This document shows positions 3,670-56,497 of a stretch of DNA of 64,000 nt, piece by piece; the stretch's first letter is position 1; each line of letters opens with the position of its first letter. The DNA lies in the NCBI GenBank assembly GCA_963760365.1, contig CAVXDC010000030.1, positions 12,663 through 76,662 of the forward strand, written 5' to 3'. The notes under the pieces were generated by a model. It did no database searches. It was not told the origin of the DNA and worked only from the letters and a program-made list of their open reading frames with translations. Source of the DNA: an uncultured Phycisphaerae bacterium (lineage in GTDB: Bacteria; Planctomycetota; Phycisphaerae; SM23-33). The position numbers and the translations under genes are program-made.

Positions 3670-3671
3670 TC

Positions 3672-4309: not shown

Positions 4310-4362
4310 GTGGAGAGGGAAGAAAGCGGCGAGGCCGCCGGCCGAGGAGGCCGAGAGAAGGA

Positions 4363-5448: not shown

Positions 5449-5449
5449 G

Positions 5450-5748: not shown

Positions 5749-5750
5749 AG

Positions 5751-6583: not shown

Positions 6584-6593
6584 GGGGTAGGTC

Positions 6594-6890: not shown

Positions 6891-6896
6891 GAACGA

Positions 6897-7238: not shown

Positions 7239-7239
7239 C

Positions 7240-8991: not shown

Positions 8992-9073
<82 letters not shown>

Positions 9074-14063: not shown

Positions 14064-14290
14064 TGGCCTCCTGAAGCAGGCGAACAGGCCAGCTCTCCCT
14101 GTCCGCATCAAAAAGAGGCTCGTTCTGTCTCCATAGTACGGCGATGGAGCATCGGCGAAGTCCCACCTGCCGTCTCTCGACATGCCCAGGCACCCGTAGG
14201 GACGCCCCCGGCAAAAACTGGCAGAACAAGGCGGGGGACAAGATACAATAAAGCAACGGTTGGCCCCAAAAAACTCACAGGGAGATCACC

Positions 14291-14959: not shown

Positions 14960-15058
14960 GGCGCTTCCGCCGTCTCCCCGTGGCAGTATTCGTGGCCCGG
15001 TGTGGGTACAATAGGACAGGCCTATGGTTCCCCATCGAACGTTTACAGGAGATCACCT

Positions 15059-15748
15059 ATGACCATCCGAACTCGCTCCATGATTCCCCTGGCTCTGGCC
15101 CTTGCCGCGACGATGGTATGCCTGGCTGAAGTGGCGACCAAACCGGCTGAAGTAGCTACCAAACCGGCGGTGTCCTTGCCTCCGCCCGTGACGAAAGGGA
15201 CCAAGTCGCTGGAGGAAGTCCTGGCCACCCGGCGGTCCGTGCGGCAGTTCAAGCCCGACCCGCTGACCGTCGAGCAGATCGGCCAGCTTTGCTGGGCCGC
15301 CCAGGGCGTCACCGAACCCAAACGCGGCCTCCGCACGGCCCCTTCAGCCATGGCCAGGTACCCGCTGGAACTCTACGTGGTGACGGCCGAGGGCGCCCGC
15401 CACTATGTCCCCGCCCACCACGCGCTGGAGACCCACGTCGAAGGTGACGCGCTGGCCACGCTGCGGGCCTCCGCCGGCCGACAACGCTCCGTCGCCCAGG
15501 CGCCGGCGGTATTCGTCTTTGCTGCCGTGCCGAGCCGGCTGGGCGGTCGATTCCCCGAGCGCGCGCAGCGATGGGTGGACCTGGAGGTCGGGCACGCCGC
15601 TCAGAACCTACTCCTGGAGGCTGTGGCGCTGGGACTGGGCGCGGTGCCGGTGGGTGGCTACGACGAAGCGGCCGTGGCCAAGGCCCTCCAGCTCCCCGAA
15701 GGGCAGCAGGTCTGTTACCTGATCCCCGTCGGCGAACCGGCGAAGTGA
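15059..15748 (+). CDS. SagB-type/nitroreductase-family dehydrogenase with N-terminal signal/anchor (paralog 2)
   Basis: Intact. The same architecture as 14291-14959, and the DNA is nearly identical over the first ~300 nt of the mature part. It has the same GGAGATCACC-ATG ribosome-binding context and a TACAAT-like box upstream. It contains a 21-bp internal duplication (AEVATKP x2, 15127-15168). Confidence 0.75.
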   Translation: MTIRTRSMIPLALALAATMVCLAEVATKPAEVATKPAVSLPPPVTKGTKSLEEVLATRRSVRQFKPDPLTVEQIGQLCWAAQGVTEPKRGLRTAPSAMARYPLELYVVTAEGARHYVPAHHALETHVEGDALATLRASAGRQRSVAQAPAVFVFAAVPSRLGGRFPERAQRWVDLEVGHAAQNLLLEAVALGLGAVPVGGYDEAAVAKALQLPEGQQVCYLIPVGEPAK

Positions 15749-15794: not shown

Positions 15795-16340
15795 CTACTC
15801 CAGGTTGGCGTGGCGCTGGCGGAATTCGTCCATGTCCAGTCGCAGCCGATCTGACAGGACGTTGAAGACCGCATCCAGGCACAGGCTGGCGGCGTGCTCG
15901 AAGACCGCCGCCCGAAGCACGATGTCGTCTTCGCTGGCGGGGATAACGACGACCTTGTCGGCCTTGCAGGCCAGGGCACTTTGCGGCTCAGCCGTCAAGG
16001 CCACGACCTTGGCCCCCAACTGCCGGGCGCGCTGGGCGATGTAATCGGTGATGCCGGTGGCGCCCGTGCAACTGATGGCCACCAGCAGGTCGCCGTTCCC
16101 GGCCGCGGGGGTGATGGTCTCTCCGGGCACAAAGGCGGGCAGCCCGGCGTGCATCAGGCGCATGCCGAAGCTGCGGGCGACTAGGCCGCTGCGGCCTGCC
16201 CCGGTCACGAACGTCCGCCGCGCCCGCGGCAGCAGGTCGGCCAGCTCGAGCAACCCCTTCCAGTCGGCCTTGTCCATCACGGCCGCGATGCGGGTCAGCA
16301 GGTCCTGACCGGCCACTCGGACTGCATCCCTGTCAGACAT
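15795..16340 (-). CDS. hxlB: 6-phospho-3-hexuloisomerase (SIS domain)
   Basis: Intact 181 aa: RRTFVTGAGRSGLVARSFGMRLMHAG..DLLVAISCTGATGIT..ARQLGAKVVALT, the typical PHI/SIS pattern. It lies immediately downstream of the HPS gene. Confidence 0.8.
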   Translation of the reverse strand: MSDRDAVRVAGQDLLTRIAAVMDKADWKGLLELADLLPRARRTFVTGAGRSGLVARSFGMRLMHAGLPAFVPGETITPAAGNGDLLVAISCTGATGITDYIAQRARQLGAKVVALTAEPQSALACKADKVVVIPASEDDIVLRAAVFEHAASLCLDAVFNVLSDRLRLDMDEFRQRHANLE

Positions 16341-16347
16341 GGAACAC

Positions 16348-16447
16348 CATTGCCAATTGCCAATTGCCAATTGCCGATTGCCGTAACACGGCTTCGCAAC
16401 GATTCTGCATCCATTGGAAATTGGCAATCGGCATTCGGCAATCATCC
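16348..16447. repeat. inverted arrays of the heptamer AATTGCC (imperfect long hairpin) between the HPS-RraA and PHI genes
   Basis: The left arm is CATTGCC AATTGCC AATTGCC AATTGCC GATTGCC G (16348-16383). The right arm GGAAATTGGCAATCGGCATTCGGCAATC (16417-16444) is its degenerate reverse complement. The loop is about 30 nt. Confidence 0.85.
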
Positions 16448-17749
16448 TATTTCCGGCCCGCCGCCTTTTTGGTCCCAGCGGGCCAGGTTGAGCACCGCTC
16501 CCAGCGTGCTGCCGCTGCGAATCTCGGTGCGGATGCGGTTCTCGGCCTCCAGCACGTCCGCGGCGCGGTTCGCCAGCTCGACGGCGCGCTCCTTGGGCAG
16601 CACGATCACGCCGTCGTCGTCGGCCGCGATCCAGTCCCCAGGAAAGACTCGCTGGCCGGCGATGGTGACGGGCACGTTGATCTGGCCCATCCCCTTGGGG
16701 TCCCCGGCGTGCGAACAGACCAGTCGCGCCAGACGGGGAACTCCAATCGGCGGATTTCGGCCGTGTCGCGGACCGCCCCGTGCACCACCAGGCCCGCAAG
16801 CTTTTTATTCTTGGCGCTCTCGGTGGCCAGTTCCCCCCAGACAGCCGGGGGCAGGCCGCCGGCGTCGATCACGATGATCTGGCCCTCCTCGGCCACGTCG
16901 ATGGCCTGGACGGGCTTGGACCAGTCGCCCGGCATCGTCCGCACCGTGACCGCCGGGCCGCAGGCGGATGATCCCGGGAAGATCGCACGCAGACCTTCCA
17001 GGCAAGGTTGGCGGTGGTTGCCATCGGAGATATTGCTGGTGCGGACAGCCGCCAGGACCGCCCGCAGGTTCTTGCCGTCGGTCCGCTTGAACAGCGCACT
17101 GGCGACGGGACGAGCGCTGTCCAAGGCCTTGCGGATGTCGGCGGTGGCGGCCTGGGGATCGACGGCCTTGGTGATCGCACCCCCGACGATGACCACGTCC
17201 GCTCCGGCTGCGGCGACCTCGGCGGCGGTTTGACTGTTGATCCCGCCCGCCACGGCCAGCGTCAGGTCGGTGGCGCTACGAAGCTGCCTTAGCAGCTCCA
17301 GCGGATCGGCGCCGGCCATCTGGGCGTCGATGGCGCAGTGCACGTCCAACCAGGCCGCGCCCAGTTGCTTGACTTTGGCTGCCAGGGCCAGTGGATCGGC
17401 GACGCCCAGGGTGTCCACGGCCACGAGCAGCCCGTAGTGCCGCCCAGCCTCGACGGCCTCGCGGATCGTGGACTCCGAGGCCGTTCCGCTGACGGTCATC
17501 ACGTTCGCCCCGGCCTTGGCGGCGGCCTCGGCCTCCAGGCGACCGGTGTCCATCGTCTTGGTGTCGGCGATGATGAGCTTGCCGGGAAACTCCGCGCAGG
17601 CGGCGGACGGCCTCCAGGCCCTCGCTCTTGATCAGCGGCGTGCCGGCCTCCAGGTAGTCCGCCCCACCCGCTGCGGCCGCCCGCGCCACGGCCAGCGCCC
17701 GCGGCAGCTCCAAAAAGTCCAACGCCACCTGCAACTTGATCCGGCTCAT
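16442..17749 (-). CDS. hxlA: 3-hexulose-6-phosphate synthase fused to an RraA-like domain (two frameshifts)
   Basis: The N-terminus is MSRIKLQVALDFLELPRALAVA..YLEAGTPLIKSEG, then IIADTKTMDTGRLEAE..VVIVGGAITKA (OMPdecase/HPS fold). Next come NISDGNHRQ..VIDAGG..AVWGELATESAKNKKLAGLVVHGAVRD and GQINVPVTIAGQRVFPGDWIAADDDGVIVLP (RraA/aldolase-like). These lie across ORFs 17276-17803, 16606-17553 and 16442-16690. Confidence 0.8.
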
Positions 17750-28591: not shown

Positions 28592-29896
28592 TCAACGCTT
28601 CCTCAGCATCGTGTAGGGGCCGTCGGGGATGATGGCGATTCGCGCATCGGGCCGGGTGACCAGAAATGAGTCGATGGCCTTTTGCGCCCGCTGCTGGGCG
28701 TTGCCGGGTCCGAGGATGGGCGTCACGGCGATATGCTTTTGCCTCTGGGCCTCCAGGCCGTCGCTGACGAACCACAAGCGCTCCTGCCCGATCCGCGCCA
28801 GGACCTTGGCCTGCATCTGGAACTCCCATTGGTCGAGCTGGGTCTGGTCGCTGGCGGCGATGTCAGAAAGAAACGTCCGCCAATCGTTGTCGTATTGCCG
28901 CATCAGCTCCGTGTACGCGGATGAGCCGAGCTGCTCGCCGCAGTGGGAGGCGATCAGGAGCGTGGAGTCCTCCGCCAGCGCCGGCAAGGCCGTGCACAGG
29001 CCCTTGACGGTCTGATAGAAGGTCTGGTCCAGCGGGAAGCCCCCGCCGTTGGTGATGACCAAATCGAACGGCCCGTCGATGGCGGCCGAGGTCCACTCTC
29101 CCACGTCGCGGCAACCGGCCAGGTGCGCCTGCTCCAGGTCGCCGCAGTAGACCCCGGCGATCCGTCGGTCGCGCGTGATGGCCACGTTGAGCAGAAAGTC
29201 CACCCCCACAGCCTTGGCGACCTTCAGGGCAATCTCGTGGCAGGGGTTGCCTTCCAGGATGCCGTTGTCGGCCTTGGGGTGCGAGAGCGTCGCATAGCCG
29301 TGGAACCGCTGCACGGTGGCCAGGTCCACCAGCGCCGGACAGACGCCCTTGCGCCCCCCGGAGTACCCGGCCATGAAATGCGGCTCGATGTACCCGGTCA
29401 CGATCCGCAGGTCCGCGGTGGCGAAGCGCCGGCAGACGCTGACGGGCGGGGAGTCGCTGACCTTCACCAGCGTGGAGGAATCGTCGCCCCGATGGTCGAT
29501 CACCTCCAGCCGCCGCAGCAAGTCGCCGCCCAGCATCAGCTCGCGCTCTCCGGCCGTGCTGGGCCGGTGCAGCCCCGTGCCGATGATGACGACGATCTGC
29601 CGATCGGCCACGCCGGCGGCGTTCAGCACCTCAAGTAAGGGTGGGAGAAAAACCCTGTTGGGCACCGGCCGGGTGATGTCGGAGATGGTGATGGCCACGG
29701 TCGAAGGATTTTTGGCGGCGACGATCTGTGAGAGGGGCTTGCTGCCGATGGGCGCCGCAAGGGCCGCCTTCACCTCGGCCTGCGGGTTGGGCAGGGCGGG
29801 GACAGTCTTGCCCTCCAGCACGGCCGCCGAATCCGGCACGGCCAGCGCCATCCCTTCCCTGCCGTAGAGCATCTTGATCGTCTTGGTCTTGCCCAT
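28592..29896 (-). CDS. larA: LarA-like nickel-pincer-dependent 2-hydroxyacid racemase/epimerase (DUF2088 family)
   Basis: Intact 434 aa. The central block is GYIEPHFMAGYSGGRKGVCPAL, which parallels the LarA cofactor-tethering GG(R)K lysine region as I recall it. GNPCHE follows downstream. It is divergent from the BMC-associated pduS-like gene. Confidence 0.7.
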   Translation of the reverse strand: MGKTKTIKMLYGREGMALAVPDSAAVLEGKTVPALPNPQAEVKAALAAPIGSKPLSQIVAAKNPSTVAITISDITRPVPNRVFLPPLLEVLNAAGVADRQIVVIIGTGLHRPSTAGERELMLGGDLLRRLEVIDHRGDDSSTLVKVSDSPPVSVCRRFATADLRIVTGYIEPHFMAGYSGGRKGVCPALVDLATVQRFHGYATLSHPKADNGILEGNPCHEIALKVAKAVGVDFLLNVAITRDRRIAGVYCGDLEQAHLAGCRDVGEWTSAAIDGPFDLVITNGGGFPLDQTFYQTVKGLCTALPALAEDSTLLIASHCGEQLGSSAYTELMRQYDNDWRTFLSDIAASDQTQLDQWEFQMQAKVLARIGQERLWFVSDGLEAQRQKHIAVTPILGPGNAQQRAQKAIDSFLVTRPDARIAIIPDGPYTMLRKR

Positions 29897-30074
29897 AGCC
29901 TCACCCGGATTGGGTTCCTAAGATTAGTCTATCCGATTCCCCCCCTGCCGCCCAAGGCCGGCGGCGGGCGTGCCGAATGTCCCGACAACCTCTCAGCGCC
30001 TTGTTTGGGTGGAGGCGATTCGCTATACACGAATTGGAAGAGCGGCCGGAGGATTCCGGCCCGGATAACAACCG

Positions 30075-31406
30075 ATGTCAACCGTTACCGTCGATACGAT
30101 CTGCTCTGCGGGCGTGGTGGGGGCCGGCGGGGCGGGCTTTCCCACGCACGTCAAGCTCTCGAGCCAGGTCGACACGGTCCTGATTAACGCCGCCGAGTGC
30201 GAACCCCTGCTCCACAAGGACAAGGAGGTCCTCAAGGAGCACGCCGACGCGGTGCTGGCCGGCCTGGCGGCGGCCATGGAACTGACCGGGGCCAAGCGCG
30301 GCGTCATAGGCATCAAGGAAAAATACGGGGACGTCATCGAGCTGCTCCGCCCCAAGCTCGGCCGCGGCATGGACATCGCCCCGCTGGCCGACGTCTACCC
30401 GGCCGGGGATGAGTTCATCTTAGTCTATGACGTGCTGGGAAGAGTCGTGCCGCCGGGGGGCATCCCGCTGAACGTCTCTGCGGTGGTGATCAACGTCGAG
30501 ACGGCCTTGAACGTCGCCCTTTCTTCTTCTCGTCCGGTGACCGAGAAATATCTCTCCATCGCCGGGGCGGTGGCCGAGCCGGTCACGCTTCGCGTGCCGG
30601 TGGGCATCTCGCTGGCGGAGTGCGTCGTCGCCGCCGGCGGGCCGACGGTGAGCGACGCCAACTACCTCGTCGGCGGCGTGATGATGGGCTTTCTGGAGGA
30701 AAACCACCAAGCCATGGTGGACAAGACCACCGGGGGCGTGATCGTGCTGCCCAGCCGGAACATCGTCGTGCGGCGGCGGCGACAGGATTGGAGGCAGGTC
30801 CAGCGGATCGGGCGAAGCGCCTGCGACCAGTGCGTCTTCTGCACCGAGCTGTGCCCGCGCTACCTGCTGGGCCATCCCATCGAGCCGCACCGGGCGATGC
30901 GCAGCCTGCAATTCACGCTGATCGGCGAGCCGAACGTCCAGGGCACGGCCTTCTGCTGCGAGTGCAACCTGTGCAGCCTGTATGCGTGCCCGGAGGACCT
31001 GGACCCCAAGAACGTCTGCGCAGAAAACAAGCACCGCCGGGCGAAAGAAAAGAAGCGATGGGATCATCCCCCCTTCAACCCAGACCGCCCCGCCTTGCTC
31101 CTGGCCGGCCGCAAGGCGCCCATGCAGCGGCTGATGCAGAAGCTGGGTCTGGCGGGCTACCGCAACGTCGGGCCGATGAAGCCCGGCCTGCTCGCGACGC
31201 GCAAGGTGGGCATCAAGCTCAAGCAGCACGCAGGCGCGCCCTGCGAGCCGACGGTCCAGGTCGGCCAGGCGGTCAAGATTGGTCAGGAGGTCGGCCGGCT
31301 GCCGAACACCAACGGCAGACCCGCCCTGGGGGCGCCCGTGCACGCCTCCATCGACGGGGTCGTCTCGGCTATTACCGATGGCGCCGTGTGGATCGAAAAG
31401 AAATGA
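30075..31406 (+). CDS. PduS/RnfC-like NAD(P)H-binding Fe-S flavoprotein
   Basis: Intact 443 aa. The N-terminus is GVVGAGGAGFPTHVKL (RnfC/PduS nucleotide-binding motif). Two ferredoxin-type clusters are present: CDQCVFCTELCP and CCECNLCSLYACP. A barrel-like C-terminal domain follows. It lies directly upstream of a PduT-like shell gene. Confidence 0.75.
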   Translation: MSTVTVDTICSAGVVGAGGAGFPTHVKLSSQVDTVLINAAECEPLLHKDKEVLKEHADAVLAGLAAAMELTGAKRGVIGIKEKYGDVIELLRPKLGRGMDIAPLADVYPAGDEFILVYDVLGRVVPPGGIPLNVSAVVINVETALNVALSSSRPVTEKYLSIAGAVAEPVTLRVPVGISLAECVVAAGGPTVSDANYLVGGVMMGFLEENHQAMVDKTTGGVIVLPSRNIVVRRRRQDWRQVQRIGRSACDQCVFCTELCPRYLLGHPIEPHRAMRSLQFTLIGEPNVQGTAFCCECNLCSLYACPEDLDPKNVCAENKHRRAKEKKRWDHPPFNPDRPALLLAGRKAPMQRLMQKLGLAGYRNVGPMKPGLLATRKVGIKLKQHAGAPCEPTVQVGQAVKIGQEVGRLPNTNGRPALGAPVHASIDGVVSAITDGAVWIEKK

Positions 31407-31422
31407 ACCAGGACCCAGACCC

Positions 31423-32001
31423 ATGACTTCCAACGCACAGTCCCTTTCCCAAAGAGCGATCGGCGCGGTGGAGCTTTCCAGCATCGGCGTCGGCTACCAG
31501 GTGCAGGATGAGATGCTCAAGGCCGCCACCGTGCGGCTGCTGGTGGCCCGGACGATCTGCTCGGGAAAGTACTTCATCGTCGTCGGGGGTACAGTCAGCG
31601 ACGTGCAGTCGTCCGTCGAGGCCGCTCTGCGGTCGGCCGAGGAGGCGATCATCGATCAGGTGGTGATCCCCAACGTGCACGAGTCGGTCTTCGCCGCCTT
31701 GGGCCAATCGGTCGTCCTGGTTCCAGGACAGGCGGCGGCCCTGGGGGTGGTGGAGAGCTTCAGCGGCGTGAGCATCATCGCCGCCGCCGATGCCGCCGCC
31801 AAGGCAGCCAATGTGACGCTGTTCCGCATCCACGTGGCCATGGCGCTGGGGGGTAAGGGGTTCTGCCTGCTGACCGGCACGGTGGCCGATGTGCGGGCCG
31901 CCGTCCAGGCCGCCGCCGAAGAGGTCCGCCGCCGAGGGTTGCTTGTCAGCCAGATCGTCATCCCCCAGCCCAGTCCGGAACTGTTCAGCGAATATATCTG
32001 A
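31423..32001 (+). CDS. BMC-T shell protein, tandem BMC domains, PduT-like
   Basis: 192 aa with two BMC-fold halves: AIGAVELSSIGVGYQVQDEMLKAATVRLLVARTICSGKYFIVVGGTVSDV, and ALGVVESFSGVSIIAAADAAAKAANVTLFRIHVAMALGGKGFCLLTGTVADV. The Cys in TICSGK aligns with the PduT [4Fe-4S]-ligand Cys in TICPGK, recalled from memory. Confidence 0.75.
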   Translation: MTSNAQSLSQRAIGAVELSSIGVGYQVQDEMLKAATVRLLVARTICSGKYFIVVGGTVSDVQSSVEAALRSAEEAIIDQVVIPNVHESVFAALGQSVVLVPGQAAALGVVESFSGVSIIAAADAAAKAANVTLFRIHVAMALGGKGFCLLTGTVADVRAAVQAAAEEVRRRGLLVSQIVIPQPSPELFSEYI

Positions 32002-32094
32002 CCCAGGTCTAACTCAGGGGGCTTCGATAGACCGCTTCTTGACTGAGTTCGTTCACCAGGTGGTAAATATCTATCAAAATCTTTCATAATTTTG

Positions 32095-32123
32095 TTGTTG
32101 ACAATATCGAAATAAGTTATAAT
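32095..32123 (+). promoter_or_regulatory. candidate promoter of the DeoR-BMC operon in an AT-rich gap
   Basis: TTGTTG/TTGACA (32095-32103) and TATAAT (32118-32123). The spacing is 17 nt from TTGTTG but only 14 nt from TTGACA. TTCGATA (about 32024) and TATCGAA (about 32105) form a distant inverted pair that could be operator half-sites. Confidence 0.35.
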
Positions 32124-32161
32124 TCTGGCATAAATACACCTCAGTATGGCGGTGTTCGGCC

Positions 32162-32932
32162 ATGGCAATGGATTTACCCATAGACGATCGCCGTATAAAA
32201 GAAGCGGAATTAGTTTCTCAAAAAGGCTTTATGTCTTTGACTGAACTCGTTCAACATCTGGACGTTTCCGAGAGCACGATCCGGCGAGACTTGGAAGTTC
32301 TGGAAGAACAGGGGGTGGTCCGTCGCACGCACGGGGGCGCGGTGTATGTCAAAGACTCAAGCGCCCACCACCTGGCCTTTGCGGATCGGGAGACCTCGGC
32401 AGCGGTGGAGAAGCAGGCCATCGCCAAGGCGGTGGCGGAGCTGATCCCGGCGGGCAGGACGATCCTCATCAACGGGGGGACAACCTGCTACCAGGTCGCC
32501 CGCCAGATCGCCGGCAGGCGGCTGAACGTGGTGACCAACTCGCTGCCCATCGCCGCGCTGCTGTCGGGCGACGTGGCCACGGAGGTCACGCTGATCGGTG
32601 GCTACGTGTATCCGCGGACGGGCGTGGCCTTGGGCCGCATGGCCGAGCAGCAGTTGGAGGACCTGCGGGCCAGCCAGTTGATCCTGAGCTGTGCGGCGCT
32701 GAATCCCGAAGGGGCCTTCAATCCCAACCAGATGATGGTGGACGTGGAGCGGCGGATGATGCAGGTGGCGGATGAGGTCATCCTGGCCGTGGACCACACC
32801 AAGCTGGACAGCCGCTCCGTCGTCAAGCTGTGCGACCTGGACGAGGTGGACGTGATCGTGACCGACGCCGGCCTGGACGAAAGCGCCCGCCGCTGGCTGG
32901 AGGCGCTCAAGGCCAAGGTGATCATCGCATGA
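32162..32932 (+). CDS. DeoR/GlpR-family transcriptional regulator
   Basis: Intact 256 aa. The N-terminal wHTH is LTELVQHLDVSESTIRRDLEVLEEQGVVRRTHGGA. The C-terminal sugar-phosphate sensor domain is ILINGGTTCYQVA..VVTNSL. Confidence 0.85.
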   Translation: MAMDLPIDDRRIKEAELVSQKGFMSLTELVQHLDVSESTIRRDLEVLEEQGVVRRTHGGAVYVKDSSAHHLAFADRETSAAVEKQAIAKAVAELIPAGRTILINGGTTCYQVARQIAGRRLNVVTNSLPIAALLSGDVATEVTLIGGYVYPRTGVALGRMAEQQLEDLRASQLILSCAALNPEGAFNPNQMMVDVERRMMQVADEVILAVDHTKLDSRSVVKLCDLDEVDVIVTDAGLDESARRWLEALKAKVIIA

Positions 32933-33624
32933 CCACGGTGCTGAACATTCCGATGCCGCGGGAGCAGTTGGAGCGGATCGTCCGCCAGGTGGTGCGCCAG
33001 CAGTTCGCCGAGCGATTGGCGGCCGGGGAGATGCAGCTTTCGGCCGCCTACACGCCCAATCTGGTGGTGAACATCTCCGCCCGACACATGCACATCACGC
33101 GCGAGGACTTCCAGAAGCTCTTTGGCCCCGGGGCGGAGCTGACGGTATATCGCTGGTTGTACCAGCCGGGGGAGTTCGCCAGCGAGCAGCAGGTGACGGT
33201 CATCGGCCCGCGCCGCAGGGTCATCGAGAACGTCCGCATCCTGGGCCCGCTGCGCGATCACACGCAACTGGAGATCAGCGCCACCGACGCCGTCGCGCTG
33301 GGCGTGGAGGCCCCCTGCCGGCCCTCGGGCAAGATCGAAGGCTCCCCCGGGTGCCTGGTCCTTGGCCCCAAGGGCACCTTGGAGCTCAAGCAGGGCGTCA
33401 TCCGGGCCGAGCGGCACGTGCACATGAGCCCGGCCGACGCGGCCGCGTACGGCTTTGCCGACCGCCAGTACGTCAAGCTGCGCGTCGAGAGCGACTGCGC
33501 CATGACGTTCGAGCGTGTCCTGTGCCGCGTGAACGAGAAATTTCTGCTGGAGGTGCACCTGGACACCGACGAGGGCAACGCGTGCAACCTGGTGAACGCC
33601 ACCGGCGTGGAGCTGTTGGCCTAA
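32929..33624 (+). CDS. pduL: phosphate acyltransferase PduL (PTAC) with N-terminal encapsulation-peptide-like helix
   Basis: The ATG overlaps the DeoR stop (ATGA). NISARHMHITREDFQKLFG and AERHVHMSPADAAAYG are the duplicated PduL repeats. The N-terminal REQLERIVRQVVRQQF is an amphipathic helix. Confidence 0.85.
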   Translation: MTTVLNIPMPREQLERIVRQVVRQQFAERLAAGEMQLSAAYTPNLVVNISARHMHITREDFQKLFGPGAELTVYRWLYQPGEFASEQQVTVIGPRRRVIENVRILGPLRDHTQLEISATDAVALGVEAPCRPSGKIEGSPGCLVLGPKGTLELKQGVIRAERHVHMSPADAAAYGFADRQYVKLRVESDCAMTFERVLCRVNEKFLLEVHLDTDEGNACNLVNATGVELLA

Positions 33625-33683
33625 ACGAAGGCAAACAATGACAAGCTATTCCGTTCAAAAGGTTTCGTGAAGGAGAAACAGGC

Positions 33684-33986
33684 ATGGCAATGCAAGCATT
33701 GGGCATGGTCGAGACGCGCGGCCTAGTCGCGCTGATCGAGGCGGCGGATGCGATGTGCAAGGCCGCCAACGTGGAGCTGGTCGGCTGGGACCGCGTCGGG
33801 GCGGGGATGGTCACTGCCTTCGTCCGCGGGGAAGTGGCCGCGTGCAAGGCGTCGGTGGACGCCGGGGCCGCCGCGGCCTCCAAGTTGGGCGAGGTGATCG
33901 CCTCCCACGTGATCCCCCGGCCACATGAGGACCTGGACCACGCGGTCCCCCACAAGGGCGAGGGCAAGAAGGCCTCCCCCAAGTGA
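33684..33986 (+). CDS. BMC-H shell protein (PduA/CcmK-type hexamer) with short basic C-terminal tail
   Basis: [66 protein letters not shown], the canonical Pfam00936 pattern. Confidence 0.92.
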
Positions 33987-34045
33987 CGTCTCGGCCAGGG
34001 CACGAAAGACGAAGGAAGCATCCCCGCCTCGGCGGGACAGGAGAA

Positions 34046-34315
34046 ATGACCATGGAAGCATTGGGCATGATTGAGACCAAGGGCTACGTAGGCCTGGTGG
34101 AGGCCAGCGACGCCATGTGCAAGGCGGCCAACGTGGAGCTGGTCAAACGGATCGAGATCGGCGGCGGCTACGTGACCACGCTGGTCCGAGGCGACGTCGG
34201 TTCGGTCAAGGCCGCCGTCGAGGCGGGCGCCGCCGCGGCGGGTAAGGTTGGCGAGCTGGTTGCCTCCCACGTGATTCCCGCCCCCCATGAAGGCCTAACG
34301 GGCGTGTTCCTTTAA
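34046..34315 (+). CDS. BMC-H shell protein
   Basis: [66 protein letters not shown]. Confidence 0.92.
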
Positions 34316-34368
34316 CCGCAGGGACTAGGGATCAGGAACCAGGCAGCGGCGAAGGTCGTGGCGCTGAG

Positions 34369-35556
34369 ATGAAGATTCTGGTAGCCAACATCGGCTCGAC
34401 AAGCTTCAAGTTCCGCCTGTTCGAGATCGCAGGCGGCCGGGAGTGCGAGCTGGCCTCGGGCTCGGCGGACCGCATCGGCGGCCGGGGCGGAGAGCTTTCG
34501 CTTACCCTCACCGGACAGGCCGCCCGCATCGCCCCGACTGACTTTGCCGACCACGGCGAGGCCATCCTGGCCGTGCTGGACCGTCTGAGCGAGGTTAACA
34601 TTCTCGACCGTAGCGGCCTGGATGCCGTGGCCTTCAAGACCGTCGTGGGCGGTGACCTGCCGGCCGTGACGAAGGTGGACGACCACGTGCTGGCGGAGAT
34701 GGAGAGCCTCTCGCCCGTCGGGCCGGCCCATAACCCGCCCTACGTGGCCGCGATGCGGTTGTTCCGCAAGGTGCTGGCCGGCGTGCCGCTGGTGGCCTGC
34801 TTTGAGAGCGGCTTCCATCGGACTAATCCGCCACGCCGTCGGCTTTACGCCGTACCGGCGGACTGGGCCGACCAGTACGGAGTGCGGCGCTACGGCTACC
34901 ACGGGGCCAGCCACCGCTACATCGCATGGCGGGTCGGCCAGCTCCAGCCGCAGGCGCGGCGGATCATCAGTTGCCACCTGGGGGGCAGCAGCAGCCTGTG
35001 TGCCATCCGCGACGGCCAATCGGTGGCGACGAGCATGGGCCTGTCGCCCCAGTCGGGCCTGCCGCAGGGCAACCGCGTGGGCGACTTCGACGTCTTTGGC
35101 GTGAAGCTGATGATGGTCCGAACCGGCCGGAAGTTTGACGGCCTGCTGGAGGAGCTGGGCGAACGCAGCGGCCTGGCGGGGTTGAGCAATACCTCCGGCG
35201 ACATGCGCGACATCCAAAAGGACGCGGCTGCGGGCCACGAGCGGGCCAAGCGGGCGCTGGAGGTTTTTGTTACGTCCGTGAGGGACTATCTGGGCGCGTA
35301 CCTGGTGGAACTGGGCGGCTGCGACGCCGTCGTCTTTACCGGCGGCATTGGTGAGAACCATCCGTCCCTCCGCGCGGCCATCTGTGAAGGCTTGGACTTT
35401 GCGGGCATCGCCCTGGATGCAACCAAGAACGCTGCGGCCAAGGGCGAATCCCGCATCGACGCCGACGGCTCCAAGGCGGCCATCTGGGTCATGCCCACCA
35501 ACGAGGAGCTTATCGTCGCCCGCCAAGCGGCGGAGATTCTTAACGACAGATCGTAG
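34369..35556 (+). CDS. ackA: acetate/propionate-family kinase
   Basis: Intact 395 aa: [51 protein letters not shown] and VFTGGIGEN. There is no encapsulation-peptide-like extension. Confidence 0.9.
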
Positions 35557-35623
35557 TTCGGAGTTGGAAGTTCGAAAGGCGACGACAAGGGAACCGGCGC
35601 GAAGAAAGGTTTGGAGAACGGCG

Positions 35624-35896
35624 ATGGAAGAAGCATTGGGAATGATTGAGACCAAGGGTCTGGTGGCCGTGATCGAGGCCACCGACGCGATGCTCAAGGC
35701 CGCCAAGGTCAGCTACGTGGGCATGACCAAGGTCGGCAGCGGGTACGTCTCGGTGCTGGTGGCCGGCGACGTGGCCGCGTGCAAGGCGTCGGTGGACGCC
35801 GGGGCCGCCGCGGCGGGGAGGATCGGCGAGGTGGTGTCGGTCCACGTGATTCCCCGGCCGCACGGTGACGTGTCCAAGATCCTGCCCAAGACTTAA
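35624..35896 (+). CDS. BMC-H shell protein
   Basis: [67 protein letters not shown]. It shares a 44-bp identical DNA block with the first BMC-H gene. Confidence 0.92.
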
Positions 35897-35971
35897 CGGC
35901 GCCGCCGGACCGGTCGATGGGCGGTCGTGCGCGAAGGCCGGTCCGGGCGGACGCGCCTGGAAGGAGTTGCC

Positions 35972-36286
35972 ATGTTCATTGCCAGGGTGCGAGGCAACGT
36001 GGTCACCACGCAGAAGGTCATGAAGATGACCGGCCGGAAATTGCTGATCATCGAGCCGCTGCGGGTGGACGAGGCCGGTGGCCAGATCAAACCCACCGGC
36101 AAGTGCTTCGTGGCGGTGGACTCCATCGACGCCGGCACGGACGACCTGGTGCTGGTGACGCAAGGGTCCAGCGCGAGGATGACCGAGACCACCGCTGAGG
36201 CTCCGGTGGACGCGGTGGTGGTCGGCATCATCGACACGATGACCGTGCTGGGCAAGATGATCTACAGGAAAGGCCAGAACGATTGA
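35972..36286 (+). CDS. BMC-P vertex protein (EutN/CcmL family)
   Basis: MFIARVRGNVVTTQKVMKMTGRKLLIIEPL...LVLVTQGSSAR...PVDAVVVGIID, the typical pentamer pattern. The ORF is open from 35927. Confidence 0.85.
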   Translation: MFIARVRGNVVTTQKVMKMTGRKLLIIEPLRVDEAGGQIKPTGKCFVAVDSIDAGTDDLVLVTQGSSARMTETTAEAPVDAVVVGIIDTMTVLGKMIYRKGQND

Positions 36287-36352
36287 CGCAGGGTTAGGCC
36301 ACCGGCCGGCCCCGCCGCTTGAGGGGCGCTTGACCGCGGCGGCGCCCCGTCG

Positions 36353-37852
36353 GTGGCGATGCATCGGGAGCTTGCCATGACTCAGACAGCGATTGACGAA
36401 ACACTGGTCCGGCAGATGGTCGAGCAGGTGCTGGGGCACATCCAGACCGGTTGGGGCGGCCGGTCGGCCCCGGCGGCCGGGAAGGGCGCTGCGGCGCCGA
36501 TCACGACCTCGGCCGCGGCGGTGAGAAATAAGTTCGGCCAGTTCACGGACGTCAACGAGGCCGTCGAGGCCGCCAAGGCAGCCCAGAGGGCGCTGGCCCG
36601 CCGGTCGCTCGCCCAGCGGGAACAGGCCTGCCAGCTCATCCGCAAGATCATCTCCGAGCAGGCCCAGGAATTGGGCCGGATGGAGTATGAAGAGACGCGG
36701 ATCGGCCATCCGCCGCACAAGCCCATCAAGCTCCAGCTCGTGGCGCGCCTGGCTGCCGGCGTCGAAGGCCTGGCCACCGAGTGCTTCAGCGGCGACCACG
36801 GCATCACGCTGGACGAGCACGGGCCATGGGGCGTGATCGGCGTGGCCACGCCCGTCACGCACTCCCTGCCCACGCTGGCCAACAACGCCGTGAACATGAT
36901 TGCCGCGGGCAACAGCCTGGTGTGCAATCCGCATCCGGGCGGCAAGAAGATCGCCGCGTACGGCGCCAAGCTGTTCAACCAGGCCATCTACGAGCTTCTA
37001 GGCATCGACAATCTCATCTGCGTCATTACCGCCCCGACGCTGGAGACGGCCAACGCCATCTTCCAGCATCCCGACATCCGCCTGCTGACCGTCACGGGCG
37101 GCATGGGCGTGGTGGCGGCGGCGCTGCGGTCGGGCAAGCGGGCCATCTGCGCCGGTCCGGGCAACCCGCCGGTCGTGGTGGATGCCTCGGCCGAGCTGGC
37201 CAACGCCGCCCGGTGCATCCTGGAGGGCGCCAGCTTTGACAACAACCTGCTGTGTTTGTCCGAAAAGGAGGCCTTCGTCGAGGCGGCGGTCTTCGAGCCG
37301 ATGATGGAGGCGATGACCAAGGTCGGCGCCTGCCGCCTCAGCCCCCCGCAGATGGACGCCTTGGCCAAGGTCTGCATCGAGCCGGCCAAGGACCACGACC
37401 ACCCCCTGGCCAGCCGAAAGTTCGTCGGGGCCGAGCCGCAGACCCTTGCCCGTCAGATCGGGCTGAACGTCCCGGCCGACTGCCGGCTGCTTTTCGGCCA
37501 GACCGACCTGATGCACCCGTTCGTTCAGGCCGAGCAGATGATGCCGGTGCTGCCGTTCGTGAAGTGCGAGAGCTTCGAGCAGGCCGTGGAGTACGCCCTT
37601 CAGGCTGAGCACGGCTTCGGCCACACGGCCGTCATCCACAGCCGGCTGGTGGACCACATGACGTACATGGGCAAGGCGATGGACACCACCATCTACGTCA
37701 AGAACGGGCCTTCGCTGGCGGGCGACTCGGCCGGCGGGGAGGGCCACGGCAACTTCTCCGTCGCCTGCTCCACCGGCGAGGGCATTGTGACCCCGCTGAC
37801 CTTCACGCGGTTTAGGCGCTGCTGCATGGTGGACAATTTGCGGATCGTCTAA
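36353..37852 (+). CDS. CoA-acylating aldehyde dehydrogenase (PduP/EutE-like) with N-terminal encapsulation-peptide-like helix
   Basis: Intact about 490-499 aa: GPWGVIGVATPVTHSLPT, VCNPHPGG, AICAGPGNPPVVVD, FDNNLLCLSEKE (catalytic Cys) and HGFGHTAVIHS. The N-terminus is IDETLVRQMVEQVLGHI. The start is 36353 or 36377. Confidence 0.88.
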   Translation: MAMHRELAMTQTAIDETLVRQMVEQVLGHIQTGWGGRSAPAAGKGAAAPITTSAAAVRNKFGQFTDVNEAVEAAKAAQRALARRSLAQREQACQLIRKIISEQAQELGRMEYEETRIGHPPHKPIKLQLVARLAAGVEGLATECFSGDHGITLDEHGPWGVIGVATPVTHSLPTLANNAVNMIAAGNSLVCNPHPGGKKIAAYGAKLFNQAIYELLGIDNLICVITAPTLETANAIFQHPDIRLLTVTGGMGVVAAALRSGKRAICAGPGNPPVVVDASAELANAARCILEGASFDNNLLCLSEKEAFVEAAVFEPMMEAMTKVGACRLSPPQMDALAKVCIEPAKDHDHPLASRKFVGAEPQTLARQIGLNVPADCRLLFGQTDLMHPFVQAEQMMPVLPFVKCESFEQAVEYALQAEHGFGHTAVIHSRLVDHMTYMGKAMDTTIYVKNGPSLAGDSAGGEGHGNFSVACSTGEGIVTPLTFTRFRRCCMVDNLRIV

Positions 37853-37876
37853 GGTCCGCCAGGGCGCAAGTGAGTC

Positions 37877-38131
37877 ATGCTGCTGGCCATGGTCGAAGGA
37901 AGCGCGATAACGACGATCAAGCATCCCTCCCTGAAGGGCTGGAAGTTGTTGGTCGTCCAGCCGCTGGACATCGAAGGCCGGCCTGACGGGGACATAATCA
38001 TGGCGATCGACATGTTGGGCGCGGGCGTGGGCACCAAGGTGGTGATAAGCAATGACGGCCGAAGCGCCCAGGAAATGGTCGGTGACGAGCGCAGCCCGCT
38101 CCGCTGGACGGTGATAGGGATCGTGGACTGA
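37877..38131 (+). CDS. BMC-P vertex protein (EutN/CcmL family)
   Basis: MLLAMVEGSAITTIKHPSLKGWKLLVVQPLD...MAIDMLGAGVGTKVVISNDG...RWTVIGIVD. Confidence 0.88.
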   Translation: MLLAMVEGSAITTIKHPSLKGWKLLVVQPLDIEGRPDGDIIMAIDMLGAGVGTKVVISNDGRSAQEMVGDERSPLRWTVIGIVD

Positions 38132-38136
38132 GGAAG

Positions 38137-38982
38137 GTGTGCCGGACCTTGGATAAGGAACTAGTCAACCAGGTGACCGAACAGGTGATCCAGATGCTCC
38201 GCCGACAGGGCGTGACGATCCCTGCTGCCGCTGTGGTTCCACCGGAGGTCTTGCCCTCGTCGGTCGGCGTTGCGCCGTCGGCTACTGGGCCCGTCAAGAG
38301 GGCCACCGCTCCGCCTGCCGGGCGGGTCTTTGTGACGGCGGAGGTGCTTCGCCAACGGATCGCTGCCGCGGGGGGCGGCGGCGGTATCGAGTTAGGCTGC
38401 AATGAGTTTCTCACGCCCAACGCCGTCGATTTGGCCGAGCAGAGACGGCTGACCATCCGCCGGACGACCTGCCCGGGGTTACCGGCCCAGGCTGCCCCGA
38501 TGGGCGCGGGAACTAGCGTTGCAGCGGCGCCTGTCCGTCAGGCCGAGCCGAAAGGTGCGTGCGGGATGATCGGCCTGGTCGTCTATCGGGCCGACGAGAA
38601 GGTCCGCAACGTGCTGGCGGGTCTGCCCCACGACGGCGTGGCCGTGACAGACTTCACCCAAGGAGATTGCTGGATGGCGGACCTGCGGCGGTTGTGCCAG
38701 GCCGTCGTCACCGGCCAGGTGGCCTCCGGGGCGGCCATCCTGCCGTATGGAGCCAACGCGATGGTCCTGGCAGGCAAGATCAAGGGCATCCGTCCCGTGC
38801 AGGGCACTCGGCCCGAGAGCGTGGCGGCGGCGCTGCGGCACTTCGGCGCCAACCTGCTGGTGTTGGAACACGCCTTCAGCACTTACCACCCGATGCGTTC
38901 GATGCTCCGCATCCTGGCGGCCGGGGGGCCGGGGGCGAATGCGGCGCTGAAGGCGGCGCTAGAGGAACTAGAAAGGTCCTGA
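38137..38982 (+). CDS. BMC-associated protein: encapsulation-peptide-like N-terminus plus degenerate RpiB/LacAB-like C-terminal domain
   Basis: Intact 281 aa. The N-terminus is LDKELVNQVTEQVIQMLRRQG. The C-terminal half is IGLVVYRAD..AAILPYGANAMVLAGKIKGIRPVQGTRPESVAAALRHFGANLLVLEHAF. This parallels RpiB GILICGTGIGMSIAANKxxGIRAA..NDxNVLxxG, but the CGTG Cys and the N-terminal DH pair are not conserved (alignment from memory). The start is GTG 38137 or TTG 38149. Confidence 0.55.
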   Translation: MCRTLDKELVNQVTEQVIQMLRRQGVTIPAAAVVPPEVLPSSVGVAPSATGPVKRATAPPAGRVFVTAEVLRQRIAAAGGGGGIELGCNEFLTPNAVDLAEQRRLTIRRTTCPGLPAQAAPMGAGTSVAAAPVRQAEPKGACGMIGLVVYRADEKVRNVLAGLPHDGVAVTDFTQGDCWMADLRRLCQAVVTGQVASGAAILPYGANAMVLAGKIKGIRPVQGTRPESVAAALRHFGANLLVLEHAFSTYHPMRSMLRILAAGGPGANAALKAALEELERS

Positions 38983-38987
38983 GCGAT

Positions 38988-39296
38988 ATGCGTGTTTCGC
39001 GTGTCATAGGAAAGGTCACGCTCAACCGCAGGATGGCCGAGCTCCAGCCGGGCAGCTACCTGATCGTTCGGCCTTACGACCGCGGGGCGCTGGTGGGCAA
39101 GAACCCCGGCAGCATGGAGGAGTCCATCGTGGTCTACGACATCCTGGCCGCCCGGGAGGGCGACCTGGTGGGGATGGTCGAAGGCCGCGAGGCGTCCATG
39201 CCGTTCCGCCCCGCCAGGGTTCCCTTTGACGCCTATAACGCCTGCATTCTGGACGCCATCGACTTCCAGCCCGTGCTGGAATTGCCGCGGACCTAG
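38988..39296 (+). CDS. BMC-P vertex protein (EutN/CcmL family)
   Basis: MRVSRVIGKVTLNRRMAELQPGSYLIVRPYD...VVYDILAAREGDLVGMVEGREA...DAYNACILDAID. Confidence 0.8.
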   Translation: MRVSRVIGKVTLNRRMAELQPGSYLIVRPYDRGALVGKNPGSMEESIVVYDILAAREGDLVGMVEGREASMPFRPARVPFDAYNACILDAIDFQPVLELPRT

Positions 39297-39318
39297 CTTC
39301 GGCCCCGGGGCATGGGAG

Positions 39319-40311
39319 ATGCACAATATGGCCAGCGAGTTTGAACTCAAAAAGCTGATCTGCGACATCGGCCGGCGGATGTACGACAAGGGTTTCGTGG
39401 CCGCCAACGACGGGAACATCTCTTGCCGCGTCGGCAAGGGCCGGTTCCTGTGCACGCCGACGTTGATGTCCAAGGGGTTCCTGCGGCCGGCCGACATCGC
39501 CGTGGTGGACGACAAGGGCAGGCAGCTGGAAGGCCCGCTGGCCCGCACCAGCGAGATCCTGCTGCACCTGGAGATCTACCACGAGCTGAGCGAGATCAAC
39601 GCCGTCTGCCACGCCCACCCGCCCTACGCGACGGCGTTCGCCGTGGCCGGCATCGACGTGCCCTCCAACATCCTGCCGGAGGTGGAAATCTTCATCGGCC
39701 AGGTGCCCATCGCCGAGTACGAGACCCCCGGCGGGGAGGGCGTCGCCAAGACGCTCCTGCCGCACCTCCGCCGCAAGGCCAACACCATCCTGCTGGCCAA
39801 CCACGGGGCGGTCGCCTGCGACAAGACGCTGGAGCAGGCCTTCTTCCACTTAGATACGCTGGATATGTACTGCCGCATCCTGCTGCTGAGCAAGGAGGTG
39901 GGCAACATTCGCCAGCTCCCCCCGGAAAAGGTGCGGGAATTGCTGGCCATCAAGAAGAGCCTGGGCATCGCCGATCCGCGCATGGACGGCCAGGAGGTGG
40001 CCGCCCTGGCTGGCAGCGATGAGTTCCTGCGGGGCTTTTCGACGCGAGCGATCCCCCAGCACACCGCCGACGCCAACGGCCACGGCCGAGGGCAGGGCAT
40101 CGCCGGCCAGCCTTCCCAGGCCGGCCAGGCCCAACCGCTGCCGGCGGGGCGACAGCTCTTTCCTGCGATGGTGGATGGTCGGGTCCTGCCCGGCCCTGAC
40201 GGCATGGGTGCCAGCAGCGAGACCGCCCGCCGCCGCAGCCTGGAAGACCAGACCGAGCGACTAGTCCAGATCATCACCGACCGCATCGTCCAGATCGGTA
40301 GCGGTAGCTAG
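39319..40311 (+). CDS. class II aldolase (fuculose/rhamnulose-1-phosphate aldolase-like) with C-terminal encapsulation-peptide-like helix
   Basis: ANDGNISCRV, SEILLHLEIYHE, AVCHAHPPYATAF and LLANHGAVACD are the metal-binding His pattern of class II aldolase/adducin. A ~100-aa low-complexity linker follows, ending LEDQTERLVQIITDRIVQIGSGS*. Confidence 0.88.
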   Translation: MHNMASEFELKKLICDIGRRMYDKGFVAANDGNISCRVGKGRFLCTPTLMSKGFLRPADIAVVDDKGRQLEGPLARTSEILLHLEIYHELSEINAVCHAHPPYATAFAVAGIDVPSNILPEVEIFIGQVPIAEYETPGGEGVAKTLLPHLRRKANTILLANHGAVACDKTLEQAFFHLDTLDMYCRILLLSKEVGNIRQLPPEKVRELLAIKKSLGIADPRMDGQEVAALAGSDEFLRGFSTRAIPQHTADANGHGRGQGIAGQPSQAGQAQPLPAGRQLFPAMVDGRVLPGPDGMGASSETARRRSLEDQTERLVQIITDRIVQIGSGS

Positions 40312-41529: not shown

Positions 41530-43207
<1,678 letters not shown>

Positions 43208-55140: not shown

Positions 55141-55198
55141 GCCGGTTACGGCAGGTTGAGCAGTTTTGCTGCCCACGGGATGCTAGCCAGGAGATGGG

Positions 55199-56497
<1,299 letters not shown>

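Follow-up and report, generated by a model that had tools for sequence, protein, structure and literature searches.

We analysed a 64,000-nucleotide (nt) stretch of DNA from an uncultured Phycisphaerae bacterium (G+C content of ~67%), called the window below, and found at positions 28592 to 40311 a bacterial microcompartment (BMC) locus of the Planctomycetes/Verrucomicrobia (PVM) type. We hold with good confidence the joint reading that this region is the operon of a Phycisphaerae PVM metabolosome, that its enzymes would act in the lactaldehyde pathway of fucose and rhamnose breakdown, and that NAD+ would be recycled by a metabolosome NADH dehydrogenase (MNdh). The pathway part of this reading is drawn from orthology with the Planctopirus limnophila system.

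The region contains 15 open reading frames (ORFs), all of which were found at their predicted coordinates and exceed the Pfam gathering thresholds (Table 1); NCBIfam equivalog cutoffs were checked in addition. The shell genes match PF00936 or PF03319, and the phosphotransacylase PduL and the class II aldolase match PF06130 and PF00596, respectively. A preliminary description of this DNA had given an order of 12 genes from a DeoR-family regulator to the aldolase, and the Pfam matches follow that sequence. It had also counted 15 genes, which is right, while its written order left out the LarA homologue, the MNdh and the tandem BMC-T gene. The PVM cluster of P. limnophila is pvmABDEGHIJKLMNO, in which PvmA is a DeoR regulator (PMC11958385), and the name table of the BMC catalogue lists PvmD and PvmE as BMC-H proteins and PvmH, PvmK, and PvmM as three classes of BMC-P. 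When compared with this published gene order, the operon matches pvmA, B, D, E, G, H, J, K, L, M, and N, so that, judged from its predicted products, the locus is pvmA, B, D, E, G, an extra BMC-H gene, H, J, K, L, M, and N.

The PVM type comprises 285 loci and is restricted to Planctomycetes and Verrucomicrobia (Axen 2014; Sutter 2021); its signature enzyme is an aldolase, accompanied by an acetate kinase and an Ldh/Mdh-type dehydrogenase that is the presumed NAD+ recycler (Axen 2014). To place the window among such loci, we scanned 185,579 species genomes with an alignment of the acylating aldehyde dehydrogenase (AldDH), which yielded 586 confirmed relatives, and compared gene order in the best 80 of these 586. 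All 80 loci are from Planctomycetota and have, within the reach of each contig, the order PduL, BMC-H, BMC-H, AckA, BMC-P, AldDH, BMC-P, (PvmL), BMC-P, and aldolase, mostly with a DeoR gene before it. The top 120 AldDH homologues are likewise all from Planctomycetota, in PVM-ordered loci. The AldDH is 51 to 55% identical to Planctomycetia PVM AldDHs and 45 to 46% identical to those of a different aldolase-type BMC locus (L107 and L115); its clustering with PVM was judged from homologue lists, identities, and gene order. The match to the PVM organelle proposed in the preliminary description was thus borne out by colinearity with the published order and with the best 80 loci, by the BMC-P triplet, DeoR, and AckA, and by encapsulation peptides on the aldolase, AldDH, and PduL.

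A public protein (P0001) on a deposited 97,429-bp contig is 100% identical to the AldDH, and the named relatives are Phycisphaerae metagenome-assembled genomes (MAGs) or other Planctomycetota. The AldDH of the nearest GTDB species representative is only 72% identical, and therefore the lineage is an uncultured one outside the genomes compared.

Three BMC-H proteins, one PduT-like BMC-T, and three BMC-P proteins are predicted to form the shell. The BMC-P proteins are distinct from one another, with ~31 to 33% identity between the first and the second and no cross-match of the third at 1e-5. The third BMC-H gene, between ackA and the first BMC-P gene, is common to the Phycisphaerae-type loci (the window and L001 to L004, L006, L083, and L085) and was not found at this position in the Planctomycetia loci compared. 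No other protein of the locus is as well conserved as its product, which is 97.8% identical to that of L002.

Independent assemblies carry this block beside the same housekeeping genes: L002 (a 20.6-kb ENA contig), L083 and L084 (both from the 577-kb JGI contig Ga0480576_000010, with 84 to 91% nucleotide identity to the window), and L085 (a metagenome contig from a separate assembly). Within the reach of each contig, the common order is purA, uppS, larA (minus strand), MNdh, BMC-T, deoR through aldolase, rmuC (minus), rpoD (minus), and dnaG (minus). Since these neighbours are shared across assemblies and the G+C content of the locus (0.63 to 0.67) matches that of its flanks, the locus is a stable chromosomal feature of the lineage and not a mobile element; the idea of a horizontally acquired island was ruled out by the same composition and by synteny in three other assemblies.

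Table 1. Features of the PVM locus and its upstream neighbours, in window coordinates
Feature	Position	Strand	Evidence
LarA-family homologue	28592..29896	-	Lar_N 1e-53, LarA_C 1e-19
MNdh (PduS-like metabolosome NADH dehydrogenase)	30075..31406	+	Complex1_51K 5e-41, SLBB, Fer4_17, RnfC_N
Tandem BMC-T, PduT type (BMC-T^SE)	31426..32001	+	two PF00936 domains, 3e-41
AT-rich intergenic spacer 5' of DeoR	32002..32161	.	promoter-like, read from sequence
DeoR-family regulator (PvmA equivalent)	32162..32932	+	HTH_DeoR 3e-20, DeoRC 6e-45; alternative start 32231
PduL-type phosphotransacylase (PvmB equivalent)	32929..33624	+	PF06130 4e-72
BMC-H shell hexamer (PvmD-like)	33684..33986	+	PF00936 3e-29
BMC-H shell hexamer (PvmE-like)	34049..34315	+	PF00936 8e-28
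AckA, acetate/propionate-family kinase (PvmG equivalent)	34369..35556	+	PF00871 9e-96, profile 1-392/392
Third BMC-H	35621..35896	+	PF00936 2e-26
BMC-P pentamer 1 (PvmH equivalent)	35969..36286	+	PF03319 4e-27
CoA-acylating AldDH (PvmJ equivalent)	36377..37852, ORF open from 36353	+	PF00171; NF011927
BMC-P pentamer 2 (PvmK equivalent)	37877..38131	+	PF03319 8e-25
PvmL homologue, 281 aa	38137..38982	+	LacAB_rpiB 24.8 bits, barely above cutoff
BMC-P pentamer 3 (PvmM equivalent)	38985..39296	+	PF03319 1e-13
Class II aldolase, signature enzyme (PvmN equivalent)	39316..40311	+	PF00596 1e-45, residues 14-190

Cargo enzymes and the predicted pathway

Four proteins of the operon have a short amphipathic helix joined to the rest of the chain by a low-complexity linker. 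In PduL, the N-terminal helix LERIVRQVVRQQF precedes the catalytic domain and is kept in L083 and L002; in AldDH, a Gly/Ala/Pro linker comes after the N-terminal helix LVRQMVEQVLGHIQ; and the PvmL homologue begins with the encapsulation peptide LVNQVTEQVIQMLRR. The aldolase has its amphipathic segment, ERLVQIITDRIVQI, at the C terminus after a linker of ~100 amino acids (aa), and this segment is kept in L083, L002, L003, and L056. A C-terminal encapsulation peptide is the published rule for BMC aldolases, and the termini that bear these peptides in the window are those predicted by the literature (PMC4594438). No extension of this type was found at either end of AckA or on the MNdh or LarA homologue. 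By these sequence features, the aldolase, AldDH, PduL, and PvmL homologue are the predicted cargo, and AckA is presumed to be cytosolic.

The AldDH scores 557 bits against NCBIfam NF011927 (cutoff, 403), and its best Protein Data Bank (PDB) match is 4C3S (6e-109). Its FDNNLLC motif aligns with FDNNLPC of 4C3S, which we take to be the site of the catalytic cysteine, and the Cys of this motif is invariant in 14 homologues. In the aldolase, the HxH and NHG metal motifs and the acid of an "SE" pair align with those of aldolase structures, so that the FucA-type residues are in place; by analogy with the orthologous enzymes, we infer a substrate of the L-fuculose-1-phosphate/L-rhamnulose-1-phosphate type.

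The gene between the second and third BMC-P genes, which had been listed as unknown in the preliminary description, could be identified by profile comparison as a PvmL homologue. An hhalign comparison of a 28-sequence profile built on the window protein with a 26-sequence profile of the proteins in the same position of Planctomycetia PVM loci gave a probability of 99.5% and an E value of 2e-22 over 238 columns. A pairwise BLASTP comparison of the window protein with its Bremerella counterpart was not significant, and NCBIfam gave no match for either protein. In an AlphaFold2 model (mean pLDDT, 80.9), a helix at residues 7 to 23 and a disordered linker are followed by a beta-alpha-beta domain (64 to 109), a second linker, and an alpha/beta domain (144 to 280). 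The last of these resembles RpiB/LacAB isomerases in Foldseek searches (3HE8, E value of 3.6e-9; target-length-normalised TM-scores of up to 0.86). A profile alignment with Escherichia coli RpiB puts an invariant proline, Pro203, at the position of the cysteine in the "CGTG" loop, presumably the catalytic Cys66 of the E. coli enzyme. The protein also has a conserved domain of ~45 aa (VFxTAE...LTPNAxDLA). We think that it is probably an encapsulated protein with a modelled RpiB fold and not an isomerase of a known type; in the BMC catalogue, PvmL is labelled small flavoprotein-like and related to PF02441 (Sutter 2021).

In the pathway that this set of enzymes suggests, L-fuculose-1-phosphate or L-rhamnulose-1-phosphate, made by products of genes elsewhere, would enter the shell and be cleaved by the aldolase to dihydroxyacetone phosphate (DHAP) and L-lactaldehyde. 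AldDH would then oxidise lactaldehyde to lactyl-CoA with formation of NADH, PduL would convert lactyl-CoA to lactyl-phosphate and so recycle CoA, and AckA, outside the shell, would form lactate and ATP from lactyl-phosphate. PVM compartments allow Planctomycetota and Verrucomicrobiota to cope with the toxic lactaldehyde that arises from fucose- and rhamnose-rich polysaccharides of algae and plants, and they are markers of that niche.

Cofactor recycling, the LarA homologue and alternative readings

In the MNdh, Complex1_51K (PF01512; residues 11 to 148) is followed by SLBB (PF10531; 162 to 206), Fer4_17 (249 to 310), and a C-terminal RnfC_N domain (PF13375; 376 to 437), and the protein thus has a flavin mononucleotide (FMN)/NADH domain and two 4Fe-4S motifs. 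A circular permutation that puts RnfC_N at the C terminus separates MNdh/PduS proteins from RnfC (PMC11626177), and the window protein shows this diagnostic order. It is 86% identical to the MNdh of L083, with no indels. The BMC-T gene begins 20 nt beyond the stop codon of the MNdh gene, and the two genes immediately precede the operon and are oriented as it is. The structures closest to the BMC-T are PduT proteins (3PAC, 1e-40; 3N79, 2e-38), and its Cys45 aligns with the Cys of TICPGKF in PduT. At residues 45 to 48 (positions 31558 to 31569), the window BMC-T has the pore motif C-S-G-K, as do its counterparts in L083 and L002; that of L051 (Thermoguttaceae) has C-A-G-K.

We found a Planctomycetia PvmO homologue (the Ldh-like protein of Bremerella locus L056, 13744 to 14685, as the query) 3' of the aldolase gene in 43 of the 80 best loci. 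The same query found no PvmO in L001 to L007, in L083, or in the window, where the best match had an E value of 1, and no other alcohol dehydrogenase was found in the window. Because of this, NAD+ is probably regenerated by the MNdh, according to the model of Sutter et al. (2024). Electrons would pass from NADH through the two 4Fe-4S clusters of the MNdh to a cluster at the pore cysteine of the BMC-T and on to an external acceptor, and all of the lactaldehyde would go to lactate, with no half-share diverted to 1,2-propanediol.

The position of this MNdh/BMC-T module varies among relatives. PVM is a listed host type of the module, and 18 of its 20 PVM occurrences are satellite loci (Sutter et al. 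2024). In a scan of metagenome contigs with MNdh, which gave 34 loci, the main-locus form was seen in L085, L098, and L113, and at least 9 relatives with enough flanking sequence are satellites. The arrangement of the window, directly upstream of the operon and in the same orientation, recurs in L002, L083, L085, and L098, and no MNdh was found within 10 kb of any of the best 80 GTDB PVM loci. A module within the main PVM locus is therefore a minority form, and one that has already been described.

The LarA homologue is transcribed divergently from the MNdh gene. It shares with the LarA superfamily (5HUQ and 9EID) both domains and the His/His/Lys/His residues: among PDB structures it matches 9EID best (7.5e-92), an entry described as a "broad-substrate spectrum lactate racemase", and an alignment with 8EZF_B shows that equivalents of His108, His174, Lys184, and His200 of L. 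plantarum LarA are conserved. We take the first two of these to be catalytic, Lys184 to tether the nickel-pincer nucleotide (NPN), and His200 to be a nickel ligand. The homologue differs in falling below the equivalog cutoffs, with 342.9 bits against the NCBIfam LarA model (cutoff, 460) and scores under the cutoffs of the malate-racemase models as well, and in that larB, larC, and larE are not among the ORFs of the window. It stands in the same position in L002, L083, and L085 and in the satellite L088 (8501 to 11950; no PVM genes within 10 kb), and its pairing with MNdh and BMC-T is limited to the closest relatives (those whose MNdh is at least 74% identical) and is not seen in more distant loci. 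We know of no described link between LarA and BMC loci. Its association with the organelle may be mere local synteny, and from its sequence context we regard it as a neighbour that is only a candidate component. Speculatively, it would interconvert lactate enantiomers for downstream dehydrogenases.

A further proposal, which is possible but doubtful in our view, is that these features define a Phycisphaerae PVM subtype that has no alcohol dehydrogenase branch, would recycle NAD+ by the MNdh only, through a CSGK-type BMC-T, would make no propanediol, and would have a co-inherited LarA that handles 2-hydroxyacid stereochemistry. If true, it would be a compact natural test case for electrochemical cofactor recycling in a BMC of aerobic sugar degradation.

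Several observations weigh against the reading of the locus as a fucose/rhamnose metabolosome with MNdh-based recycling. Genes for an isomerase, kinase, or transporter of fucose or rhamnose were not found in the 64 kb; the preliminary description had called the locus complete, which overstated the case, as the core is present but PvmO was not found in the window and no such isomerase or kinase genes are nearby. The aldolase is below all NCBIfam equivalog cutoffs, its top match being 3-oxo-tetronate-4-phosphate decarboxylase (125 bits; cutoff, 250), with FucA models at 66 to 94 bits, and therefore its assignment to a substrate comes from orthology alone. The BMC-T pore motif departs from CP(G/S)K, reported as universal in BMC-T proteins of the module (Sutter et al. 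2024, PNAS), in that Pro is replaced while Cys, Gly, and Lys are kept, and binding of a cluster is thus not assured. Finally, P. limnophila itself was compared by way of other Planctomycetia loci and secondary sources, not by its own sequence. The aldolase scores, together with the promiscuity of class II aldolases (Axen 2014), the lack of fucose and rhamnose genes nearby, and the hint of sugar-phosphate handling given by an encapsulated RpiB-fold PvmL, would fit a substrate other than a fucose or rhamnose derivative, such as another deoxy-sugar or sugar-acid phosphate from which a different aldehyde would be released. We consider this improbable, given that the 12-gene block is orthologous with the PVM loci of lineages that form BMCs on rhamnose or fucose and that the FucA-type metal and acid residues are kept in the aldolase. 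That the locus belongs to another aldolase BMC type (MIC4, MUF2, PVM-like, or GRM5) is less probable still and would surprise us: the MIC4 parts list in the catalogue equals that of the window, including an in-operon PduS/PduT pair with a pore cysteine, but MIC4, MUF2, and PVM-like loci are reported from other phyla and the window is from Planctomycetota. The locus also has DeoR and a PvmL homologue, is colinear with PVM gene by gene, and has no glycyl-radical enzyme; the differently organised loci L107 and L115 are more distant (AldDH, 45 to 46% identity; aldolase, 41%), and Phycisphaeraceae PVM main loci with a BMC-T are already in the catalogue.

Cofactor recycling is the part of the preferred reading with the strongest competitor. 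The locus could be a canonical PVM locus in which a lactaldehyde reductase encoded elsewhere (PvmO, Ldh-like, or FucO-like) recycles NAD+, with the MNdh/BMC-T module as a conditional addition. Both recycling systems occur together in 1,725 loci, and the module has been proposed to be a conditional accessory (Sutter et al. 2024). Its usual satellite position in PVM genomes agrees with this, as do the close MNdh relatives of the metagenome set, most of which are satellites with no PVM genes nearby, and our view is of 64 kb of one genome. We nevertheless think this explanation unlikely. Among the Phycisphaerae-type loci with sequence 3' of the aldolase gene (L001 to L004, L006, L007, and L083), PvmO is missing at that place throughout, the window has no Ldh-like match (E > 1), and the module is kept directly upstream, in the same orientation, in L002, L083, L085, and L098.

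Regulatory sequence, frameshifts and neighbouring genes

The stop codon of the DeoR gene and the start codon of pduL overlap by 4 nt (ATGA), as they do in L083. In the 160-bp AT-rich spacer 5' of the DeoR gene, TTGACA (32098 to 32103) is followed after a 14-nt spacer by a perfect TATAAT (32118 to 32123), and the whole spacer is almost unchanged in L083 and has diverged further in L002. We infer a putative promoter here from these hexamers. A sigma-70 consensus scan called no promoter, having missed the TTGACA/TATAAT pair owing to its short spacer. The number of terminator-like sites was that expected by chance (7 found, 7.0 expected). A shared operator in the LarA/MNdh and BMC-T/DeoR spacers was considered and rejected, because the sole recurring sequence is the 9-mer GTCTATC(C)GA, which neither L083 nor L002 conserves. 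Neither Rfam (gathering threshold) nor ARAGORN gave a match in the locus, and their sole match in the window was a tRNA-Tyr (8992 to 9073). At the 3' end, the ORF of the convergent rmuC is open to a stop codon that overlaps the aldolase stop codon by 4 nt, and rmuC homology ends near 40356.

The preliminary description had stated that every gene of the locus is intact and that about one third of the surrounding genes are broken, and both statements hold. We measured frame integrity against the intact relatives L002, L083, and L084, and elsewhere by truncation or fusion of Pfam profiles. Each locus gene is a single frame relative to the three relatives, with indels only in multiples of 3, whereas ~15 of ~40 flanking genes are affected. 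Frame changes were counted in proC (1), the fused gene for 3-hexulose-6-phosphate synthase (HPS) and an RraA-like domain (2), dnaA (2), dnaE (2), uppS (1), rmuC (1), and rpoD (15). Breaks evident from Pfam truncation or fusion affect rpsL, rpsG, fusA, rplC, rplW/rplB, rpsS, a B12-radical-SAM gene, mnmE, a 7TM gene, and PPDK. Intact flanking genes are those for PurA, DnaG, a TrkA channel, TrmB, a DNA methylase, 6-phospho-3-hexuloisomerase, two nitroreductases, RNase H, a CT398-like protein, and a GFO oxidoreductase. The rpoD gene (41530 to 43207, minus strand) has its 15 non-multiple-of-3 indels within 1.68 kb in comparison with L083; they are mostly single-base insertions and not at homopolymers, and no common sequence context (homopolymer or motif) was found among the 15. 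Unlike rpoD, the adjacent 1.8-kb dnaG has no indels.

We conclude that the frameshifts are assembly or consensus errors in the public MAG and not biology, because indispensable genes are hit, the pattern is extremely patchy, the relatives are intact, and the fragments are in the deposited contig, for which truncated products of DnaE (758 aa), UppS (70 aa), RpoD (241 and 82 aa), and DnaA (170 aa) are on record. Long-read gap filling or conserved genes mixed from several strains are possible causes of the patches. The contrast between locus and flanks could also be read as selection on the organelle while its surroundings decay. Among genes with a reference, 7 of 18 in the flanks are broken and none of 15 in the locus (Fisher's exact test, one-sided, ~0.007); with Fisher's test, or with a Poisson calculation that excludes the rpoD hot spot, a locus free of breaks would nominally arise with a probability of ~0.01. 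We regard selection as extremely improbable, since the broken genes include rpoD, dnaE, dnaA, fusA, rpsL, rpsG, rplB, and uppS, which are indispensable and intact in relatives, since rpoD and the adjacent dnaG differ so sharply, and since the fragments are gene products of the 97,429-bp contig as deposited. Other clean runs exist, such as 54.9 to 64 kb, where no frame break is evident by Pfam profile coverage only. Real pseudogenisation of the flanks was rejected on the same two grounds, breaks in essential genes and intact copies in relatives. The contrast is thus uninformative about selection, given that essential genes are broken and that the assembly as deposited already contains the frameshifts. 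Pseudogene patterns in this deposited MAG, with its dense and patchy frameshift errors in essential genes, are not to be read as biology.

Elsewhere in the window, the str/S10 ribosomal-protein region (positions 1 to 8400; rpsL, rpsG, fusA, rpsJ, rplC, rplW, rplB, and rpsS) is heavily frame-broken, with truncated Pfam profiles and with ORFs in which L23 is fused to L2 and S19 to the sequence downstream of it, and only rpsJ looks intact. At 15798 to 17749 (minus strand), the HPS-RraA fusion is followed by a SIS-domain 6-phospho-3-hexuloisomerase, both of the ribulose-monophosphate pathway; the fusion protein, with two frameshifts in the window, is intact in L084 (436 aa). Two tandem nitroreductase paralogues at 14252 to 15748 (plus strand) lie in the same frame with one stop codon between them, and both are intact and present in L084. 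An intact thiC is found at 55187 to 56497 (plus strand), and nowhere in the window did a thiamine pyrophosphate (TPP) riboswitch pass the Rfam gathering cutoff.

Comparison with known systems

The locus shares with the PVM cluster of P. limnophila its phylum, its gene order, and its parts: DeoR, PduL, two adjacent BMC-H genes, AckA, a BMC-P triplet interleaved with AldDH and PvmL, and an aldolase with a C-terminal peptide. It differs in having no PvmO after the aldolase, an extra BMC-H gene between ackA and the first BMC-P gene, and MNdh and BMC-T genes upstream. In P. limnophila, a 46-bp gap with a promoter separates the DeoR gene from pduL, which overlap by 4 nt in the window. The Planctomycetia PVM loci in general are set apart by their AldDHs, which are only 50 to 55% identical to that of the window. 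The PVM description in the catalogue has two BMC-H genes and no BMC-T in the main locus, and the window has three BMC-H genes and one tandem BMC-T.

MIC4 (Sutter 2021) has in common with the window an AldDH, a phosphotransacylase (PTAC), a PF00596 aldolase, an acetate kinase, a BMC-P triplet, and the in-operon PduS/PduT pair. It is found in other phyla, and its catalogue description includes neither DeoR nor PvmL, while the gene order and AldDH affinity of the window are those of PVM. Loci L105 to L110 and L115 (for example, L107, 5208 to 11840) carry PduL, AckA, AldDH, aldolase, MNdh, and BMC-T with the enzyme genes contiguous and not interleaved with shell genes, and may be MIC4-like.

With the MNdh/BMC-T^SE module (Sutter et al. 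2024), the window shares the four-domain MNdh, the adjacent BMC-T with a pore cysteine, the AldDH, and a locus with no alcohol dehydrogenase; its pore is CSGK, and the module is in the main locus as opposed to a satellite. The locus adds little to the definition of PVM, and its interest is as a clean example in which MNdh/BMC-T is the sole visible NAD+ recycler and is joined to the main locus. This lineage would be useful for testing the electron-export hypothesis of 2024 and the tolerance of the pore motif to Ser in place of Pro.

Cultured Phycisphaerae are known to have PVM clusters, and "Humisphaera borealis" has been shown to form BMCs (PMC13514998). The PVM loci of "Humisphaera borealis", Tepidisphaera mucosa, and Fontivita pretiosa (Tepidisphaerales) and the Phycisphaeraceae entries of the catalogue, in which PVM main loci with a BMC-T ("T_pvm") are already recorded, are of the same class and PVM type as the window, and some of them have a BMC-T in the main locus; the named genomes were likened to the window by description and not by sequence. 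Set beside them, the locus is an ordinary addition to the PVM family, of the Phycisphaerae kind, with modest leads in how the cofactor is recycled, in the CSGK motif of the pore, in a PvmL with an RpiB fold, and in LarA as a neighbour.

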